This document shows, piece after piece, positions 1 through 4,297 of a stretch of 4,832 nt of DNA (its first letter is position 1; each line of letters opens with the position of its first letter). Location: positions 1 through 4,832 of IMG/VR virus record IMGVR_UViG_2579778650_000007. One strand, 5' to 3'. A program made the translations under genes and the position numbers. The DNA is from a virus (Duplodnaviria; Heunggongvirae; Uroviricota; Caudoviricetes). The notes under the pieces were generated by a model. The model searched no databases. It was not told the DNA's origin and saw only the letters and a list, made by a program, of their open reading frames with translations.

Positions 1-295
1 CGGTATCGTGGCAACGGCGGATGATGCGGACGCGAAGCTGTTCCCGCTGAACAAGCCCACACTGCTGACCCGCGTCAATGACGTGCTGGGAAAATGCGGA
101 ACAACGGGGACGCTTTATCGTGCGCTTAAGGCCATCGCAGACCAGGTGAGCACAAAGGTGATCGTCGTTCGCGTGGCTGAACACAAAGAAGAAGACGGAA
201 ATGGCAGTATATCGGGGCAGGCGATGATCGCATCGTGCTTTCTGGTGTGCTTTATCCTGAAATCACAGGTGGCGAAGTGTCGCTGTCGCTGCTGA
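1..295 (+). pseudogene. 5' fragment of a P2 gpFI-like tail sheath gene (frame 2, open to the window start; the true start lies upstream of the window). Sheath similarity ends near 200, after which the frame runs about 30 unrelated codons to a stop at 293-295.
   Basis: Frame-2 translation GIVATADDADAKLFPLNKPTLLTRVNDVLGKCGTTGTLYRALKAIADQVSTKVIVVRVAEHKEEDGNG resembles the N-terminal region of P2 tail sheath FI as I recall it (..DADAETFPLNKPVLITNV..GTL..LQAIADQ..). Only about 70 aa of a roughly 390-aa protein family are present. No search was run. Confidence 0.55.
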
Positions 296-573
296 CCACG
301 CAGGCGTATACAGGACGCCCCTGGCCTCTGATTGATGGCGTCGGACAGATTTACGGCATGTATGTACTGACTGAAACGAATACGACCCGCTCCGAGTTTG
401 ATCGCTACGGTAAGGCGAAAAAGATAGAATTTTCACTGACACTTGAACGCTGTGATGAGGATTTGCGGGAGCGCCTGCAATCCTCATCGTTCAGTGATAT
501 GCTGTCCGGCTTCAAAGATAAGGTCACATCATCCCTTAACAGCGCGGCCAGCTCCGTTAAAGGGCTGTTTTGA
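199..573 (+). pseudogene. 3' portion of a P2 gpU-like tail protein gene (frame 1). There is no in-frame ATG; the ORF track starts it at GTG 235, but the similarity begins upstream at about 199-205. It is joined out of frame to the sheath fragment.
   Basis: Frame-1 translation KWQYIGAGDDRIVLSGVLYPEITGG..WPLIDGVGQIYGMYVLTE..KKIEFSLTLERCDE matches my recollection of P2 gpU (..FQFLGVGEENITLAGVLYPELTGG..WPLLDGTGMIYGMYVI..RKIDFTLSLTRVDE). Frame 1 has stops at 178-180 and further upstream, so the N-terminal ~37 codons of a gpU are missing. Confidence 0.5.
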
Positions 574-580
574 TTAACGC

Positions 581-610
581 AAAACCGCTAATGGTCAGAT
601 TAGCGGTTTT
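581..610. terminator. Bidirectional intrinsic terminator between the convergent gpU-fragment and invertase genes
   Basis: Perfect inverted repeat AAAACCGCTAAT (581-592), loop GGTCAG, ATTAGCGGTTTT (599-610). It is followed by a T-rich run on the plus strand (CATTTTCC), and the stem itself ends in TTTT on either strand. The invertase stop codon (600-602, minus) lies inside the stem. Confidence 0.55.
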
Positions 611-1199
611 CATTTTCCTGAGTCTGCCTGGTTGTTTCTTCAGCCTGTATATCGCCTACAGGGTGATAACGATAAATCGTCGATATGCCGATGTCGTAAA
701 TGATCGCCAGTTGTTTCCTGTCATGACCGTTTTTAATCAGCCTCGCTATTTGCTCGTGTTGTTCTTTTGTCAACTTCGGGCGACGTCCGCCAATGCGTCC
801 TTGTGCGCGTGCTGCTGCCAGCCCGGCCAGTGTACGCTCTACAATTAATTCACGTTCCATTTCGGCTAAAGCTCCCATGACGTGAAAAAAGAAACGCCCC
901 ATGGGTGTTGATGTGTCAATGCTGTCCGTTAGACTACGGAAATTAACACCTTTTTCCCGCAATTCCTCAATAAGCGTGATCAGGTGTTTCATACTTCTGC
1001 CCAGTCTGTCCAGCTTCCAGACAACCAGCGTATCTCCTTCTGATAGCGTTCTGAGCAGTTTTTTCAATCCCGGTCTGGCTGATTTCGTTCCGCTGATTTT
1101 ATCTTCAAAAATCAGTTCACATCCTGCGCACTCCAGCGCGTTACGCTGCAATTCTGTATTCTGGTCATTTGTTGATACGCGGACATAGCCAATAAGCAT
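600..1199 (-). CDS. Serine-recombinase DNA invertase of the Gin/Pin/Cin/Hin family (199 aa)
   Basis: N-terminus MLIGYVRVSTNDQNTELQRNALECAGCELIFEDKISG..TLVVWKLDRLGRSMKHL..GVNFRSLTDSIDTSTPMGRFFFHVMGALAEMERELIVERT is near-identical to the resolvase/invertase catalytic domain, with the catalytic Ser at position 9. The C-terminus (GRRPKLTKEQHEQIARLIKNGHDRKQLAIIYDIGISTIYRY) is the HTH DNA-binding domain. A possible Shine-Dalgarno (AGGGGA) lies upstream of the ATG at 1197-1199. Confidence 0.93.
   Translation of the reverse strand: MLIGYVRVSTNDQNTELQRNALECAGCELIFEDKISGTKSARPGLKKLLRTLSEGDTLVVWKLDRLGRSMKHLITLIEELREKGVNFRSLTDSIDTSTPMGRFFFHVMGALAEMERELIVERTLAGLAAARAQGRIGGRRPKLTKEQHEQIARLIKNGHDRKQLAIIYDIGISTIYRYHPVGDIQAEETTRQTQENENR
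1125..1180. promoter_or_regulatory. Predicted Fis-dependent recombinational enhancer (sis-like) inside the 5' coding region of the invertase gene
   Basis: Placed by analogy only. In the Hin, Gin and Cin systems the enhancer lies within the first ~100-170 bp of the invertase gene. The minus-strand sequence here (GTATCAACAAATGACCAGAATACAGAATTGCAGCGTAACGCGCTGGAG) closely parallels the hin enhancer region as I recall it. Fis sites were not individually resolved. Confidence 0.3.
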
Positions 1200-1226
1200 G
1201 ATGGATCCCCTGAATAAAAACCGGGG

Positions 1227-1625
1227 ATGATGCCAGTTAGCCGTAATCTCTGCATTTTCTTAAACGTTGGTTTAGGAGAAGCGGCAAAACGGAATGTGGG
1301 CACAGGAGATAATCAGATACCGGATATGGGAGCATTCGCTTCTGGTTCGGGATGGTTCAGGCTACCAGGTGGATATATTGTTCAGTTTGGCACTTTTGCA
1401 GGAAACACGACCCGCTTTATCAGTGGACACTTCCCTATACCATTCCCTAATCAGCCGATGGTTTCAGTCAGTGTTATGTCTGATGCCGTTCAGTCAGACC
1501 CGTCGATTCCTGCCCCGCAGGTTTTGTCTGTAAATTTTGAACATATCAGTAATTCAGCGTGGCGTGTGGCAACCAGTGATATCTCACAGCAATACAGATT
1601 CAGTTATATTTCGATAGGACGGTAG
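1227..1625 (+). CDS. Alternative tail-fibre C-terminal cassette (Sv'-like), silent in the present orientation. The functional part is 1281..1625 (114 aa after the shared GLGE); the ATG at 1227 probably only opens the frame.
   Basis: The translation carries ..NVGLGE immediately followed by a divergent C-terminal domain (AAKRNVGTGDNQ..YRFSYISIGR). GLGE is encoded exactly on the crossover site and is shared with the tail fibre at aa 379-382. The stop at 1623-1625 is 2 nt before the start of the downstream chaperone gene. Confidence 0.7.
   Translation: MMPVSRNLCIFLNVGLGEAAKRNVGTGDNQIPDMGAFASGSGWFRLPGGYIVQFGTFAGNTTRFISGHFPIPFPNQPMVSVSVMSDAVQSDPSIPAPQVLSVNFEHISNSAWRVATSDISQQYRFSYISIGR
1255..1280. 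other. Invertase crossover site, invertase-proximal (gix/pix-like, 26 bp, central dinucleotide TT at 1267-1268)
   Basis: TTTTCTTAAACG TT GGTTTAGGAGAA. The inner half-site (rc TTCTCCTAAACC) fits the invertase half-site consensus TTATCnAAAACC. It lies about 55 bp upstream of the invertase start and overlaps the codons V-G-L-G-E of the plus-strand cassette. Confidence 0.75.
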
Positions 1626-1627
1626 AA

Positions 1628-2068
1628 ATGCAGAAATATATTTTCAGTGCCGATAAAAATGCGTTTTTCCCTGTGGAGCTTAAAATCGCTTATCAGGAAT
1701 CCGGCGAATGGCCCGATGATGGAATCGAAATTGACGACACTGTTGCTGCCGAATTTATGAAGGAAGCACCAGAAGGAAAATACAGAGGTGTCATCGACGG
1801 AATGCCTGCATGGATTGATATTCCACCGCCAACTCATGAGGAACAAATTGCCGCAGCCGAACTGAAAAAGCAGCAATTGATTAATCAGGTCAACGAATAC
1901 ATAAACAGTAAGCAATGGCCTGGTAAAGCGGCGATTGGTCGCCTGAAAGGTGAGGAACTGGTGCAATATAATTTGTGGCTGGATTATCTGGACGCACTGG
2001 AACTGGTCGATACTTCCGGTGCGCCAGATATTGAATGGCCTACGCCTCCGGCAGTTCAGGCCAGATGA
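1628..2068 (+). CDS. Tail-fibre assembly chaperone (Tfa/gpG/U'-like, 146 aa), cognate to the alternative cassette
   Basis: ATG at 1628 preceded by AGGACGG. The C-terminus VDTSGAPDIEWPTPP has the conserved Tfa motif DTSxAPDIEWP. It lies inside the invertible segment and is co-oriented with the alternative cassette. Confidence 0.85.
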   Translation: MQKYIFSADKNAFFPVELKIAYQESGEWPDDGIEIDDTVAAEFMKEAPEGKYRGVIDGMPAWIDIPPPTHEEQIAAAELKKQQLINQVNEYINSKQWPGKAAIGRLKGEELVQYNLWLDYLDALELVDTSGAPDIEWPTPPAVQAR

Positions 2069-2633
2069 CATCCGGTGCGGTGCTGGTATCTGTTGCCGTC
2101 ACCGCGTCAATATAATCCAGCACAGCGTTAAGTCGGGTGTTTTCTGGCTGCGTCAGCTTCCGCACGGCCTGTAATTTCAGTTGAATCAGACTGATGGAAG
2201 CCATTGCAGCATCAATCAGCGACTGGCGCTTTACTTCTGCCGCGTCTAGTGCGGCGCTATGCTGTGCCTCGGTATCCGTCACCCATTTCTCACCATCCCA
2301 TTTATCGTATGGCGTTAACGGTGAAAGCGTGACATAACCGTCTTTGATGGCACCGATATAATCCACTGTAACAGCTGCGCCATTTTCGATTGAGTAAACA
2401 GTCTCATTGCGGTGGTCTTCTTCATGGCTCCATCCCTTACCCGTAAATACTGCCACTCTTCCCGGAATGTATTCGCCCGGGTCAATACCAGTGGAACAAG
2501 CGGGCATACTTACGCCAGTATTAATATATTCATCAGACCAGCCAGTATATTCATACGTAACTGCCTCATAATAAAAACAACGCATATTACCCGGTACTGT
2601 AGCCAGCCCATTTTCATCAAAAACAGGTTTCAT
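2040..2633 (-). CDS. Tail-fibre assembly chaperone (Tfa/P2 gpG/Mu U-like, 197 aa), cognate to the currently expressed fibre tip
   Basis: The C-terminus VTATDTSTAPDVIWPELPEA has the Tfa motif. Its start codon overlaps the tail-fibre stop (TAATG at 2631-2635 on the minus strand), suggesting translational coupling. The central part (GKGWSHEEDHRNETVY..DKWDGEKWVTDTEAQ) resembles lambda/P2-type Tfa proteins. Confidence 0.88.
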   Translation of the reverse strand: MKPVFDENGLATVPGNMRCFYYEAVTYEYTGWSDEYINTGVSMPACSTGIDPGEYIPGRVAVFTGKGWSHEEDHRNETVYSIENGAAVTVDYIGAIKDGYVTLSPLTPYDKWDGEKWVTDTEAQHSAALDAAEVKRQSLIDAAMASISLIQLKLQAVRKLTQPENTRLNAVLDYIDAVTATDTSTAPDVIWPELPEA

Positions 2634-4297
2634 TATTTAGCCCTCACTAGAAAGTTAAATGCAATATTTCGTGGGCGGGTTTCTGTACCTACATTTCCAC
2701 TAATTTCACCATAACGTTTAACGCTACGAGAGCTAATAGCTCGTAGTGAGGAAGGCACCCTAAGACCGGGTTCGTCCGTTTTAACTATTCCCCCGTCACC
2801 ATATGTAGCCAGTATTCCTGGGTTGACTCCTTCCCGTGTACTTCCTGCGACAAGCCCGTCCCCCGTCCACAATTCCATATTGTGTGCATGATCCATAATT
2901 GTGTGTGATTGCCCTGAAAGTAGGGTACGTCCGACATCAATCCCGCGTCCGTCATCCCAGATACGAATGAAATCACCGCGTGCGTCAGGTAATGCCAGCG
3001 CCGGAAACACTTTCGCCAGCACAGGGTAATCAGTGGCAGAGAATTTCGCGCCGTTGAACTTCAAAAACACCATGCTGGACCAGCTATCGATTACGGTATC
3101 TGGCATTGCTGCGGACGGCCAGAAGAACGGAACGCCAATAGCTGGAGCACCTTCTCCCAAACCAAGGTAATCAAGAACTCCCTGAGTGCTGGTTTTACCA
3201 AGAATGGCACGTCCAACACTTGTCAACGCGGTTAACGCGGCACGATCTGCCCCTGTAAAATATGGGAGTTTATCTGCTGATGTAGCAAGCTCCGCCAGCG
3301 CCGTCAGGGTGGCATCCTTCGGTTGCTTACCCGCAAGCGCGTTAGTCATGGTGGTCGCAAAATTCGGGTCATTGCCCAGCGCCGCAGCCAGTTCGTTCAG
3401 CGTGTTCAGTGCATCAGGTGACGAATCTACAAGTGCGGCAATCGCAGCCATAACGAAAGCCGTGCTTGCGATCTGGGTACTATTAGTCCCCTGTGGCGCT
3501 GTTGGTGTTGTTGGCGTTCCGGTCAGTGCCGGGCTGTTTAATGGTGCTTTCTTGTTCGTTTCATCCATTACCGCCTTAACAGCTTTTGGTGTCGCTGCCA
3601 GCGTTTCAGACGTGCTGTTCGTGGCGCTACTGAGCTGAACAATCCCTTTTTGTGTAGTGGTGGCGTTCTGGGCGGTATATTTCCCGTTAGCCAGGTCATA
3701 TGCAGCCTTAACCGCTTTCGGTGTTGCGGCCAGTGTTTCTGATTCACTGTTAATTGCACTGCTTAACTGAGTAAAACCTTTTACGGTCAGCGAGGCGTCC
3801 GGGTGACGTCGTGACTGTTCGTGCTCTGATATTTTATCATCCACATATTTGCGGGTTGCCAGAACCACAGACGGGTCGATTTTCAGCGTGATAGCTTCGG
3901 TGTTCGTGACAACCAGAATCATGCGGATAGTCTGGGTGCGTCCACTGCCTTCCTGCAACTGCGGTTTGTACGTTTCCGGGCAGTTTGCCACCGCAATGAG
4001 TACACCTTCATCATCATAAAGACCAATCTCACGGATCCAGAATCCTCCCTCGTTTTCAGGGATGATTTGCTCCGCAATAATCTGGCTCTGATTGTTAGGG
4101 TCAACACTCAGAAGATTCAGCGGTGCAATGCGTTTCTGGTTAATCAGTTTTGTTTGTGCAGGGTCTGGTGTTGGTAACACACCATTTGCATCACCAACGG
4201 CCATTTGCGTCAGATTCAGCTTACTGCCGAGCATCGTCGCGTTAGCCAGTCGTGCCGCGCCCTGATTAGTCAGAATGGCGTAGTATTTCACTGTCAT
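2633..4297 (-). CDS. Tail fibre protein, P2 gpH-like (554 aa): constant N-terminal part aa 1-382 (coded at 3152..4297), variable C-terminal receptor-binding part aa 383-554 (coded at 2636..3151, inside the invertible segment)
   Basis: N-terminus (..MAVGDANGVLPTPDP..GGFWIREIGLYDDEGVLIAVAN..YKPQLQEGSGR) and the paired shaft repeats QLSSA(I/T)NS(E/T)SETLAATPKAVKA match my recollection of P2 gpH. The start overlaps the gpI-like stop (ATGA at 4294-4297). Confidence 0.93.
   Translation of the reverse strand: MTVKYYAILTNQGAARLANATMLGSKLNLTQMAVGDANGVLPTPDPAQTKLINQKRIAPLNLLSVDPNNQSQIIAEQIIPENEGGFWIREIGLYDDEGVLIAVANCPETYKPQLQEGSGRTQTIRMILVVTNTEAITLKIDPSVVLATRKYVDDKISEHEQSRRHPDASLTVKGFTQLSSAINSESETLAATPKAVKAAYDLANGKYTAQNATTTQKGIVQLSSATNSTSETLAATPKAVKAVMDETNKKAPLNSPALTGTPTTPTAPQGTNSTQIASTAFVMAAIAALVDSSPDALNTLNELAAALGNDPNFATTMTNALAGKQPKDATLTALAELATSADKLPYFTGADRAALTALTSVGRAILGKTSTQGVLDYLGLGEGAPAIGVPFFWPSAAMPDTVIDSWSSMVFLKFNGAKFSATDYPVLAKVFPALALPDARGDFIRIWDDGRGIDVGRTLLSGQSHTIMDHAHNMELWTGDGLVAGSTREGVNPGILATYGDGGIVKTDEPGLRVPSSLRAISSRSVKRYGEISGNVGTETRPRNIAFNFLVRAK
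3152..3177. other. Invertase crossover site, distal (gix/pix-like, 26 bp, central AA at 3164-3165), located inside the tail-fibre gene
   Basis: TTCTCCCAAACC AA GGTAATCAAGAA. Positions 3152-3165 match the reverse complement of 1267-1280 at 13 of 14 positions. The site encodes L-G-L-G-E (aa 378-382) of the fibre. Confidence 0.75.
3572..3772. repeat. Tandem direct repeat (two copies of about 69 bp, 132 bp apart) encoding the fibre shaft repeat QLSSAxNSxSETLAATPKAVKA
   Basis: 3704-3772 and 3572-3640 encode aa 176-198 and aa 220-242 of the tail fibre and are visibly similar at the DNA level (GCCTTAAC.GCTTT.GGTGT.GC.GCCAG.GTTTC.GA..). Confidence 0.6.

Follow-up and report, generated by a model that had tools for sequence, protein, structure and literature searches.

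The locus described here is very probably a Pin-type site-specific inversion switch in a P2/Fels-2-like prophage, carrying two unrelated tail fiber tips that each have their own chaperone. As such, it represents an ordinary type of DNA-inversion switch in phages, one that is well understood. Ever since Mu, P1 and e14, textbooks have covered invertible tail fiber segments in which unrelated alternative tips come with cognate chaperones. The Mu G segment (gin; S/U, S'/U') and the P1 C segment (cin) combine a constant fiber N-terminus and a Din-family invertase with alternative C-termini and a separate assembly protein behind each of them, and switching changes the host range. The present locus resembles the G and C segments, but its host phage is P2/Fels-2-like. 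Genes identical to those of the locus are already annotated in RefSeq and, as the pairing of a collar tip with a gp53-like tip is already found in the P segment of e14, this kind of switch was already known.

Organization of the Inversion Switch

The features of the window, i.e., the whole stretch of 4,832 nucleotides that was analyzed, are listed in Table 1. We refer to the tip that is joined to the fiber shaft in the window as tip A, and to the unjoined, invertase-proximal tip as tip B.

Table 1. Coordinates of the genes, cassettes and crossover sites in the window.
Feature	Position	Strand	Remarks
Tail sheath gene fragment, codons 29-96	1..201	+	99% identical to L001 883-1083 (394-aa sheath gene); Pfam Gp18_domIII_N
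gpU tail gene, C-terminal part from codon 40	202..573	+	Residual ORF 235-573
Serine DNA invertase, Pin/Gin/Cin/Hin type, 199 aa	600..1199	-	Pfam Resolvase 6e-52 and HTH_7 1.4e-12
14-codon leader MMPVSRNLCIFLNV, outside the invertible segment	1227..1268	+	Provides an ATG, at 1227 or 1230, for the invertase-proximal cassette
Left 26-bp crossover site	1255..1280	+	TTTTCTTAAACG-TT-GGTTTAGGAGAA; inner half 1269-1280 encodes GLGE
Unjoined cassette of tip B, GLGE + 114 aa + stop	1269..1625	+	Pfam PF21882
Tip B tail fiber assembly protein, 146 aa, TfaP-like	1628..2068	+	Pfam Caudo_TAP 9e-34
Tip A tail fiber assembly protein, 197 aa, TfaE-like	2040..2633	-	Pfam Caudo_TAP 1.5e-24
Tip A cassette, GLGE + 172 aa + stop, joined to the shaft	2633..3163	-	2XGF match; HTIMDHAHNMELW at 2867-2905
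Right 26-bp crossover site	3152..3177	-	TTCTTGATTACC-TT-GGTTTGGGAGAA on the - strand; inner half encodes GLGE
P2 gpH-like tail fiber, constant part, aa 1-378	3164..4297	-	Pfam Phage_tail_fib 1.8e-62, Phage_fiber_2 6.5e-42
P2 gpI-like baseplate protein, cut by the contig end	4294..4832	-	Pfam Tail_P2_I 1.5e-40; gene call in L019

In the proposed mechanism, the serine invertase would exchange strands at the central TT of the two inverted 26-bp sites, upon which the ~1.9-kb segment between them would flip. The receptor-binding C-terminal module would then be supplied by whichever cassette faces the constant fiber codons. In the sequenced orientation the fiber ends in tip A (176 aa including GLGE), and an inversion would give it tip B instead (118 aa, again with GLGE). 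Transcription of the fiber operon would start at a late promoter upstream of it. Because the right crossover site lies inside the fiber gene, codons 1-378, which comprise the baseplate-attachment domain and the shaft repeats, are constant.

The crossover sites share a 15-nt core, TTGGTTTRGGAGAAG, of which the window holds two exact copies in inverted orientation (1267-1281 on the + strand and 3151-3165 on the - strand), against an expected count of 0.00 in 200 shuffles. This core is the same as the repeat of the e14 P segment, TTGGTTTGGGAGAAGG, as given in PMC12529663. The exchange point is the TT/AA dinucleotide directly before GLGE (1267-1268 and 3164-3165); GLGE is thus part of both cassettes, and the units being exchanged measure 176 and 118 aa. 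In the fiber, GLGE occupies residues 379-382 (3163-3152), and in the + strand ORF it is encoded by 1269-1280. It is the sole element common to both tips because the inner halves of the two 26-bp sites code for it, and its conservation follows from its being the translation of a half-site that the invertase must recognize. When the segment was inverted in silico, the fiber ORF remained in frame and measured 496 aa. On unrelated shafts (P0001, P0004, P0122, P0123), the same tips are likewise attached at GLGE, which makes it a natural splice point for fiber swapping.

Both Orientations Occur in Other Genomes

The flipped joint (shaft and tip B) is present in seven complete E. coli chromosomes, with 98.6-99.4% identity over the full 660-bp query, and the joint of the window (shaft and tip A) in four, with at least 80% of the query covered. 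A 189-aa ORF consisting of the leader and tip A, which is the flipped silent form, stands for 165 member sequences. In one further contig (L020), the sequence changes from tip A to the leader beside the invertase precisely at the dinucleotide that had been predicted, a recombinant joint located at the left crossover site; this chimeric contig may stem from a genome that carries the switch twice, once in flipped form, instead of from mixed orientations in one culture. The terms "expressed" and "silent" that the initial annotation applied to the tips hold for the sequenced orientation, but they capture a single moment, as both orientations occur in nature and are found in other genomes.

The prophage itself is defective. 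At the joint between positions 201 and 202, 4,917 bp are absent, corresponding to the rest of the sheath gene, the tube, gpE/E' and tape measure genes and the start of gpU. Deprived of its sheath, tube and tape measure genes and of part of gpU, the prophage cannot assemble a tail by itself, and the switch is therefore carried by a decaying element, which may make no use of either fiber form. Exact-protein look-ups retrieved the same joint from L005, L006/L018, L020 and L021; it had no exact match in the one-genome-per-species contigs and was in no complete E. coli genome searched.

The deletion and the out-of-frame sheath-gpU fusion that it created would fit a dead switch, in which the lineage no longer inverts the segment and the unjoined cassette has become a decaying pseudogene, as would the fact that the equivalent stfE of e14 is marked as a pseudogene in RefSeq. 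However, all five switch genes are intact, and they share 97-100% identity with their copies in isolated phages and in complete prophages. The invertase, which has 82.5% identity to PinE of e14, is residue-for-residue identical to a very widespread protein, found in 3,560 index blocks of the collection, and the L020 assembly, a sister that shares the deletion, holds the precise recombinant joint between tip A and the leader. On the strength of the widespread invertase and this joint we rejected the dead-switch reading, which we consider very improbable.

The Two Tips Belong to Different Structural Families

The fiber ORF (2633-4297 on the - strand) encodes 554 aa, with 172 aa following GLGE and ending in ...TETRPRNIAFNFLVRAK. 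The + strand ORF (1227-1625) reads MMPVSRNLCIFLNV-GLGE, followed by 114 aa (1281-1622) that end in ...YRFSYISIGR and a stop codon at 1623-1625. Tip lengths of 172 and 114 aa after GLGE, the terminal residues of the unjoined tip and the His-containing motif HTIMDHAHNMELW in the joined one (fiber residues 465-477) had all been reported in the initial annotation, and the translated ORFs bear them out.

The same source had described the tips as dissimilar beyond GLGE, in agreement with both BLASTP and profile-profile comparison. Aligning the tips with BLASTP gave only chance matches of 3-8 residues (E ≥ 2.5), hhalign of a 64-sequence tip B profile against the tip A profile gave a probability of 0.3%, and hmmsearch with the tip B profile scored tip A at -1.6 bits. 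An earlier hhalign match (89.7%) did not represent tip homology, as it consisted of the shaft end, GLGE and a few residues after it, contributed by full-length rows.

Tip A is predicted to be a collar domain of the T4 gp37/gp12 type that accommodates a short metal-binding HxH needle as an insertion. It matches the receptor-binding tip of T4 gp37 (2XGF) with an E-value of 1.3e-4 in a single-sequence phmmer search and of 1.4e-17 with the family profile; T4 gp12 entries match at ~1e-4. The Pfam Collar model (PF07484) scores 16.9 bits on the tip A of the window alone, below the cut-off of 24, and relatives that are 73-76% identical have a precomputed PF07484 match. Three co-linear matches to gp37 correspond to the collar, the HxH stretch and the terminal NIAFNYIVR: tip A DHAHNMELWTGDG aligns with gp37 EHSHYIEAWNGTG (EH929SH931YIEAWNGTG), and NIAFNFLVR of tip A aligns with NIAFNYIVR. 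Like gp37 with H929 and H931, tip A has an HxH followed by ExWxGxG, and H87, H92 and H94 are invariant in the 18 tip A sequences aligned; H92 and H94 of the tip correspond to H470 and H472 in the numbering of the fiber. The domain layout and the iron-binding histidines of gp37 have been described (PMC6957217); its insertion measures 128 aa and holds seven iron sites, whereas that of tip A is only ~70 aa with one HxH. A further difference is that gp37 depends on the chaperones gp38/gp57A, whereas tip A has a Caudo_TAP protein. Among the lambda/HK97 Stf C-termini, the end of HK97 Stf is 39.6% identical to tip A. The last strand of tip A, NIAFNFLVR, is predicted to return to the collar, and the receptor-contacting residues would lie in the middle of the cassette, not at its C-terminal end. 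The receptor of tip A may be LPS or an outer-membrane protein.

Tip B comprises a connector of ~30 aa and a Gp53-like_C lectin-type domain, and is predicted to form a jelly-roll, lectin-type foot of the R-pyocin/AP22 gp53 family. The Pfam Gp53-like_C model (PF21882) aligns to residues 45-132 of its 132-aa ORF with 37.0 bits, against a gathering score of 24.9. A single-sequence search of the PDB with tip B yielded no significant match, and a shallow profile retrieved only 9ZD7 (0.0045); 64 diverse tips from a representative search were needed for the profile to reach the pyocin and AP22 structures (6CXB, 2.2e-9; 4MTM, 6.9e-9; 6CL5, 1.3e-8; 6CT8, 2.2e-6; 6CL6, 3.3e-6; also 9ZD7). The feet of R1/R2 pyocins (6CXB, 6CT8, 6CL5/6CL6) and AP22 gp53 (4MTM) match the last ~90 aa of tip B, though at low sequence identity and with distal specificity loops that are not conserved in tip B. 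R-pyocin fibers bind core LPS through a lectin/jelly-roll foot and require a downstream chaperone (PMC6363177), and the receptor of tip B is probably an LPS core sugar. Copies of tip B that are 97.5% identical occur in sequenced phages. In the PDB searches, neither tip profile matched the fiber entries of Mu.

The AlphaFold2 monomer model of tip A, built on an alignment of 18 close homologs, had a mean pLDDT of 30.5; that of tip B, built on 21, had a mean pLDDT of 40.5 and was all-beta with seven strands. In view of these values, the fold assignments of both tips rest solely on sequence-profile homology. The poor models are likely due to the shallow alignments (at least 74% identity) and to the trimeric, intertwined nature of the tips.

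The profiles of the two tips thus match different folds, represented by disjoint sets of solved structures (the gp37/gp12 collar and the R-pyocin/AP22 foot), which argues against a single domain. If the tips were nevertheless divergent versions of one domain that bind the same receptor, the switch would be functionally neutral. The common GLGE junction could be read in this way, and both tips are short, beta-rich fiber ends in need of Caudo_TAP chaperones. Yet apart from the disjoint structures and the profile-profile probability of 0.3%, the tips differ in length, the HxH motif is confined to tip A, and the N-terminal domains of the chaperones are unrelated. We rejected homology of the tips on the BLASTP, hhalign and hmmsearch results, and judge a neutral switch of this kind extremely unlikely. 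That the tips recognize different surface receptors, as initially proposed, is supported by sequence comparison. For those who engineer fibers, the structural class of a tip (gp37-type collar/HxH or R-pyocin-type lectin foot) guides to the expected receptor-contact residues and tells which chaperone must accompany which tip.

Each Tip Is Followed by Its Own Assembly Protein

A dedicated chaperone for each tip had also been proposed at the outset. Both candidates are Caudo_TAP proteins (PF02413), a family that includes lambda Tfa, P2 gpG and Mu U, each gene lies directly downstream of its own tip, and the type of chaperone tracks the type of tip. The two tfa genes are convergent and overlap by 29 bp. 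Their products share 36% identity that is confined to the C-terminal ~80 aa, and have unrelated N-terminal domains; for a protein identical to the tip A chaperone, Caudo_TAP_N is recorded. Among loci with an identical invertase, Gp53-like tips always lie beside a short Tfa of 136-147 aa, and collar tips beside a Tfa of 197-200 aa with Caudo_TAP_N. The N-terminal domain is probably the part that binds the tip. A phmmer search of the PDB with each Tfa gave no significant match, and the link to the Mu Tfa-fiber complex, which North et al. reportedly solved in 2019, is consequently based on the Pfam family and on the literature.

Comparison With e14 and the Possibility of a Free Tip

The closest parallel in organization is the P segment of e14 (pinE, stfE, tfaE, tfaP, stfP), a cryptic prophage of E. 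coli K-12 that is defective, like the prophage described here. The gene order is the same (invertase, proximal tip ORF, convergent tfa pair, fiber), and the same tip classes are paired, a collar/HxH tip (StfE, 43% identical to tip A) and a gp53-like tip. TfaE is 60.5% identical to the tip A chaperone and TfaP 56% identical to the tip B chaperone. In contrast, the StfP shaft of e14 is a stub of ~96 aa, whereas the locus has a full P2 gpH-type N-terminus of 378 aa, and the StfP tip is not similar to tip B at the BLASTP level. Relative to the MG1655 reference, the orientation of the window corresponds to that of an "inverted" e14.

The StfE2 protein of e14 consists of the stfE leader joined to the gp53-like StfP tip. 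According to Kirigo et al. (2025, NAR; PMC12529663), StfE2 blocks a receptor: when it is produced, adsorption of T2 falls to 3-12%, and cells whose e14 segment is inverted are resistant to this phage. The ORF at 1227-1625 has the same build (a short outside leader, GLGE and a gp53-like tip) and lies in the same place beside the invertase. The ATGs at 1227 and 1230, pointed out in the initial annotation, are indeed in frame with the unjoined tip, in a frame that is open only from 1218. The leader overlaps the left crossover site, in its outer half, as well as the region upstream of the invertase. The ORF (131-132 aa, depending on the start) might encode a lectin tip that is made free of any shaft, probably with the Tfa at 1628-2068 as its folding partner, and that coats or masks a surface receptor and so protects the host from other phages; the tail-less remnant would then retain the switch as a defense toggle, as for StfE2.

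Several observations favor a free tip. The ORF is the exact positional counterpart of StfE2, and the StfP tip, though only remotely related to tip B, fits the tip B family profile with an E-value of 7.5e-13. The DNA that separates the invertase start from the crossover site, with ATGATGCCA and a purine-rich stretch immediately before it, is conserved between e14 and the locus without a frame-breaking change. Furthermore, the tail genes are lost, yet the invertase, both tips and both Tfa proteins are intact in at least three independent samples; these intact genes, however, may just reflect a recent deletion. Other features weigh against it. A crude consensus scan for sigma-70 sites found no sigma-70-like promoter upstream on the + strand, the ATG is only 27 bp from the divergent invertase start, and a GGGG run abuts the ATG at 1227, which is poor spacing for a Shine-Dalgarno sequence. 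Elsewhere, the leaders of equivalent ORFs vary in length and sequence (MISILNL, MVIKKV, MSASPVVKTGEEAKYHLIQKNISKV), as would be expected if this DNA did not code for protein and if nothing but the crossover site and the promoter of the invertase constrained it. At the BLASTP level, tip B and the tip of StfE2 are not similar, and the published evidence for StfE2 comes mainly from plasmid over-production and docking. Taken together, a protective free tip appears rather unlikely.

In a broader version of this reading, the invertase-facing tip of the tail-less remnant, translated from the ATG at 1227 or 1230, would be a free trimeric adhesin that is assembled with its Tfa and masks a host surface receptor, and inversion would toggle two different superinfection-exclusion states instead of host range; this we regard as unlikely. 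If it were true, the single report on StfE2 of e14 would be extended to a widespread family of the P2/Fels-2 type. The invertase-proximal ORF, which annotation pipelines call as a gene, is now tied to that recent claim.

Two fibre tips assigned to different families

The two tips had been described in the initial annotation as differing in size and unrelated in sequence, and every size and position given there matched our ORF listing and translation. In the 554-aa fibre, the GLGE junction (residues 379-382) is followed by the 172 aa of tip A, which include HTIMDHAHNMELW and end in ...NIAFNFLVRAK. The unjoined ORF next to the invertase encodes MMPVSRNLCIFLNV-GLGE and then the 114 aa of tip B, ending in ...YRFSYISIGR; the terms 'expressed' and 'silent' do no more than distinguish the shaft-fused tip from the other. 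The lack of kinship was borne out by BLASTP of tip A against tip B (best E 2.5), by hhalign of a tip-B profile (64 sequences) against a tip-A profile (probability 0.3%) and by the score of tip A with the tip-B HMM (-1.6 bits). On profile homology, the tips are assigned to two different structural families, so that a single domain common to both, which would argue against two receptor specificities, was not found. AlphaFold2 models (pLDDT 30.5 for tip A, 40.5 for tip B) were unusable. The observation is confirmed, and its interpretation as two receptor specificities is supported by homology.

Features of the window, present in full as the 4,832-bp contig JICC01000160.1 (assembly GCA_000691025.1)
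Feature	Position	Strand	Basis
Deletion joint	201/202		
gpU fragment	235-573	+	Pfam
Hairpin, 12-bp stem and T-run	581-610		
Serine recombinase, resolvase/HTH_7	600-1199	-	Pfam
Gp53-like_C	1227-1625	+	Pfam
18-nt inverted repeat (crossover)	1264-1281 / 3151-3168		
Caudo_TAP chaperone, convergent with 2040-2633	1628-2068	+	Pfam
18-nt inverted repeat (tfa)	1978-1995 / 2104-2121		
Overlap of tfa genes	2040-2068		
Caudo_TAP chaperone, convergent with 1628-2068	2040-2633	-	Pfam
P2 gpH-type fibre, Phage_tail_fib + Phage_fiber_2	2633-4297	-	Pfam
Collar part of tip A	2999-3145		
gpI	from 4294	-	Pfam

As a single sequence, tip A matched the receptor-binding tip of T4 gp37 (2XGF, E 1.3e-4), and its family profile matched 2XGF (1.4e-17), a short tail fibre (9CUY, 2.9e-17) and T4 gp12 entries (~1e-4). 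The gp37 match is co-linear and made up of three pieces: the collar domain, DHAHNMELWTGDG aligned with EHSHYIEAWNGTG of gp37, and, at the end, NIAFNFLVR aligned with NIAFNYIVR. Counting the first chain residue as gp37 785, the gp37 His residues within the second piece are numbered H929 and H931. In gp37, the needle is inserted into the collar domain; iron is bound by H929/H931, and neighbouring residues contact the receptor (PMC6957217). By analogy, tip A would be a collar with a hairpin insertion of ~70 residues, and receptor contact should lie mid-cassette (about fibre residues 473-510), not at the C-terminus. Tip residues H87, H92 and H94 are invariant across 18 relatives. Most of the variation in the family falls in the collar part, which in the window type carries the 9-residue insertion DTVIDSWSS and numerous substitutions; residues 85-142, comprising HxH and the predicted distal part, do not vary. 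If strain specificity were determined by the distal part, the opposite pattern would be expected. One database protein (P0077) is a mosaic of both types of the family. Among phage records, the best match to tip A reached 58%, and HK97 Stf 39.6%.

Tip B passed the Pfam Gp53-like_C threshold (37 vs 24.9 bits), and a full HMMER scan returned 444 cluster representatives. Nearly all tips of this family are 100-130 aa long; GLGEAAKRxVGTGxNQIPDM...LPxGxIxQWG is conserved at the start, the last residues are ...IAIG, and the middle varies. The family profile matches the R1 pyocin fibre (6CXB, 2.2e-9; 6CL5) and AP22 gp53 (4MTM, 6.9e-9), as well as R2 pyocin fibres (6CT8, 6CL6) and 9ZD7. The pyocin foot, of jelly-roll/lectin fold, uses its distal loops to bind core LPS and depends on the downstream chaperone for solubility (PMC6363177). 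At 97.5% identity, tip B is found in the sequenced phages SKA5, vB_EcoM-611R5, Klebsiella Kp48xx-2 and 500465-2. The representative search also returned P0251, a protein of 1,893 aa with 20 tandem units at a 76-aa period that match tip B residues 3-52 (GLGEAAKRNVGTG...LPGG..QFG); this suggests that tip B starts with a repeatable fibre module of ~50 residues that is not part of the lectin domain.

Chaperones

The proposal of one dedicated chaperone per tip is supported by loci with an identical invertase, because Tfa size and domain content track the tip class: Gp53-like tips are always followed by a Tfa of 136-147 aa, and collar tips by one of 197-200 aa with Caudo_TAP_N. TfaA and TfaB, the chaperones of tips A and B, share 36% identity over the last ~80 residues only. 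Tfa proteins are reportedly modular, with a conserved C-domain and an N-domain that varies and binds the tip, and a likeness limited to the C-terminus fits that published picture. The two tfa genes converge with a 29-bp overlap, and an 18-nt inverted repeat (89% complementary) encodes the conserved LDYLDA/LDYIDA of the shared C-terminal domain; homologous inversion or recombination within the segment might use this repeat as a substrate.

Inversion of the segment

An 18-nt inverted repeat flanks both tips and both chaperones, and its 15-nt core has exactly two copies in the window, against none in 200 shuffles. The crossover sites can be written as 26 bp, TTTTCTTAAACG-TT-GGTTTAGGAGAA and TTCTTGATTACC-TT-GGTTTGGGAGAA, with the GLGE codon run as the inner half-site (GGT TTR GGA GAA); thus the sole protein element common to the tips is translated recombinase-required sequence. 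In silico inversion at the TT yields an in-frame 496-aa fibre ending in tip B, and a leader plus tip-A ORF of 190 aa adjoining the invertase. Four lines of evidence indicate that the segment inverts. The flipped joint (shaft and tip B) occurs full-length in seven complete E. coli chromosomes (98.6-99.4% identity) and the window-type joint in four, and a 189-aa protein, MPVSRNLCIFLNV-GLGE-tip A, which stands for 165 database members, is the flipped silent form. Contig L020 (JICD01000138.1), from a sister assembly, is identical to window 5-3165 and past the AA core continues as the reverse complement of window 1266-1206 (joint within L020 3147-3222). This is a precise recombinant joint of tip A to the invertase-side leader, inside a 7-nt identical core; either the culture contained both orientations or the genome carries a further copy in the flipped state.

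A flipped-type joint, 82-84% identical, is also present in three records (H53-H55) whose length, 90-110 kb, points to P1-like phage-plasmids, in which case related tip B cassettes would also reside on plasmid prophages.

The fourth line is the identical 199-aa invertase, which is present in 3,560 index blocks, adjoining many different tip pairs. Among loci L008-L017, which share it, the pairs are Gp53-like/Gp53-like, Collar/Gp53-like or tips without a Pfam match; L017 has a SopE effector gene within the fibre region, like SopE-phi-type phages, and degradation is evident in L014 and L016. Several unrelated shafts are also joined at ...NLGLGE to tips A and B, in proteins of 193-289 aa with much shorter N-terminal shafts (P0001, P0004, P0122, P0123), so the crossover site at GLGE is also a module boundary across phage groups.

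Comparison with the e14 P segment

The closest described system is the P segment of e14 in E. coli K-12. PinE is 82.5% identical to the window invertase, TfaE 60.5% to TfaA, TfaP 56% to TfaB and StfE (collar/HxH type) 43% to tip A; the tip of StfP belongs to the tip-B family by profile (E 7.5e-13). The crossover core is identical to the e14 repeats as printed in PMC12529663, and, with MG1655 taken as the reference, the window orientation matches that of 'inverted' e14. The switch is an ordinary system, a further case of a known type and not a new one.

The in-frame ATGs at 1227 and 1230, noted previously, are real: gene callers start there and predict a 131-132-aa 'gp53-like domain-containing protein'. 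In position, this ORF corresponds to e14 StfE2, which is reported to block T2 adsorption when produced and has been credited with the T2 resistance of cells with the inverted e14 segment (Kirigo et al., PMC12529663). Conservation of the spacer between the window and e14, including ATGATGCCA, favors a functional free tip made from these ATGs, but we consider this improbable: no sigma-70-like promoter was found upstream of them, only 27 bp separate the ATG from the divergent invertase start, and a G-run directly abuts ATG 1227. Moreover, neither the length nor the sequence of the leader is conserved among other loci, as would be the case if the only constraints on the region were its roles as a crossover site and as the sequence upstream of the invertase.

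A tail-gene deletion

The prophage of E. coli O111:H2 12A, which is 99.9% identical, has 4,917 bp that are missing from the window, where sheath codon 96 runs out of frame into gpU codon 40. Lost with this stretch are the remainder of the sheath gene, the start of gpU and the genes for the tube, gpE/E' and the tape measure; with this gene content, the prophage cannot build its own tail. The joint was found in none of the complete E. coli genomes; it recurs in two sister assemblies, one further NCBI assembly and a metagenome scaffold from ENA (L005, L006/L018, L020, L021), and is therefore real and inherited. Between the convergent gpU fragment and invertase gene, a hairpin overlapping the final invertase codons is likely a bidirectional terminator.
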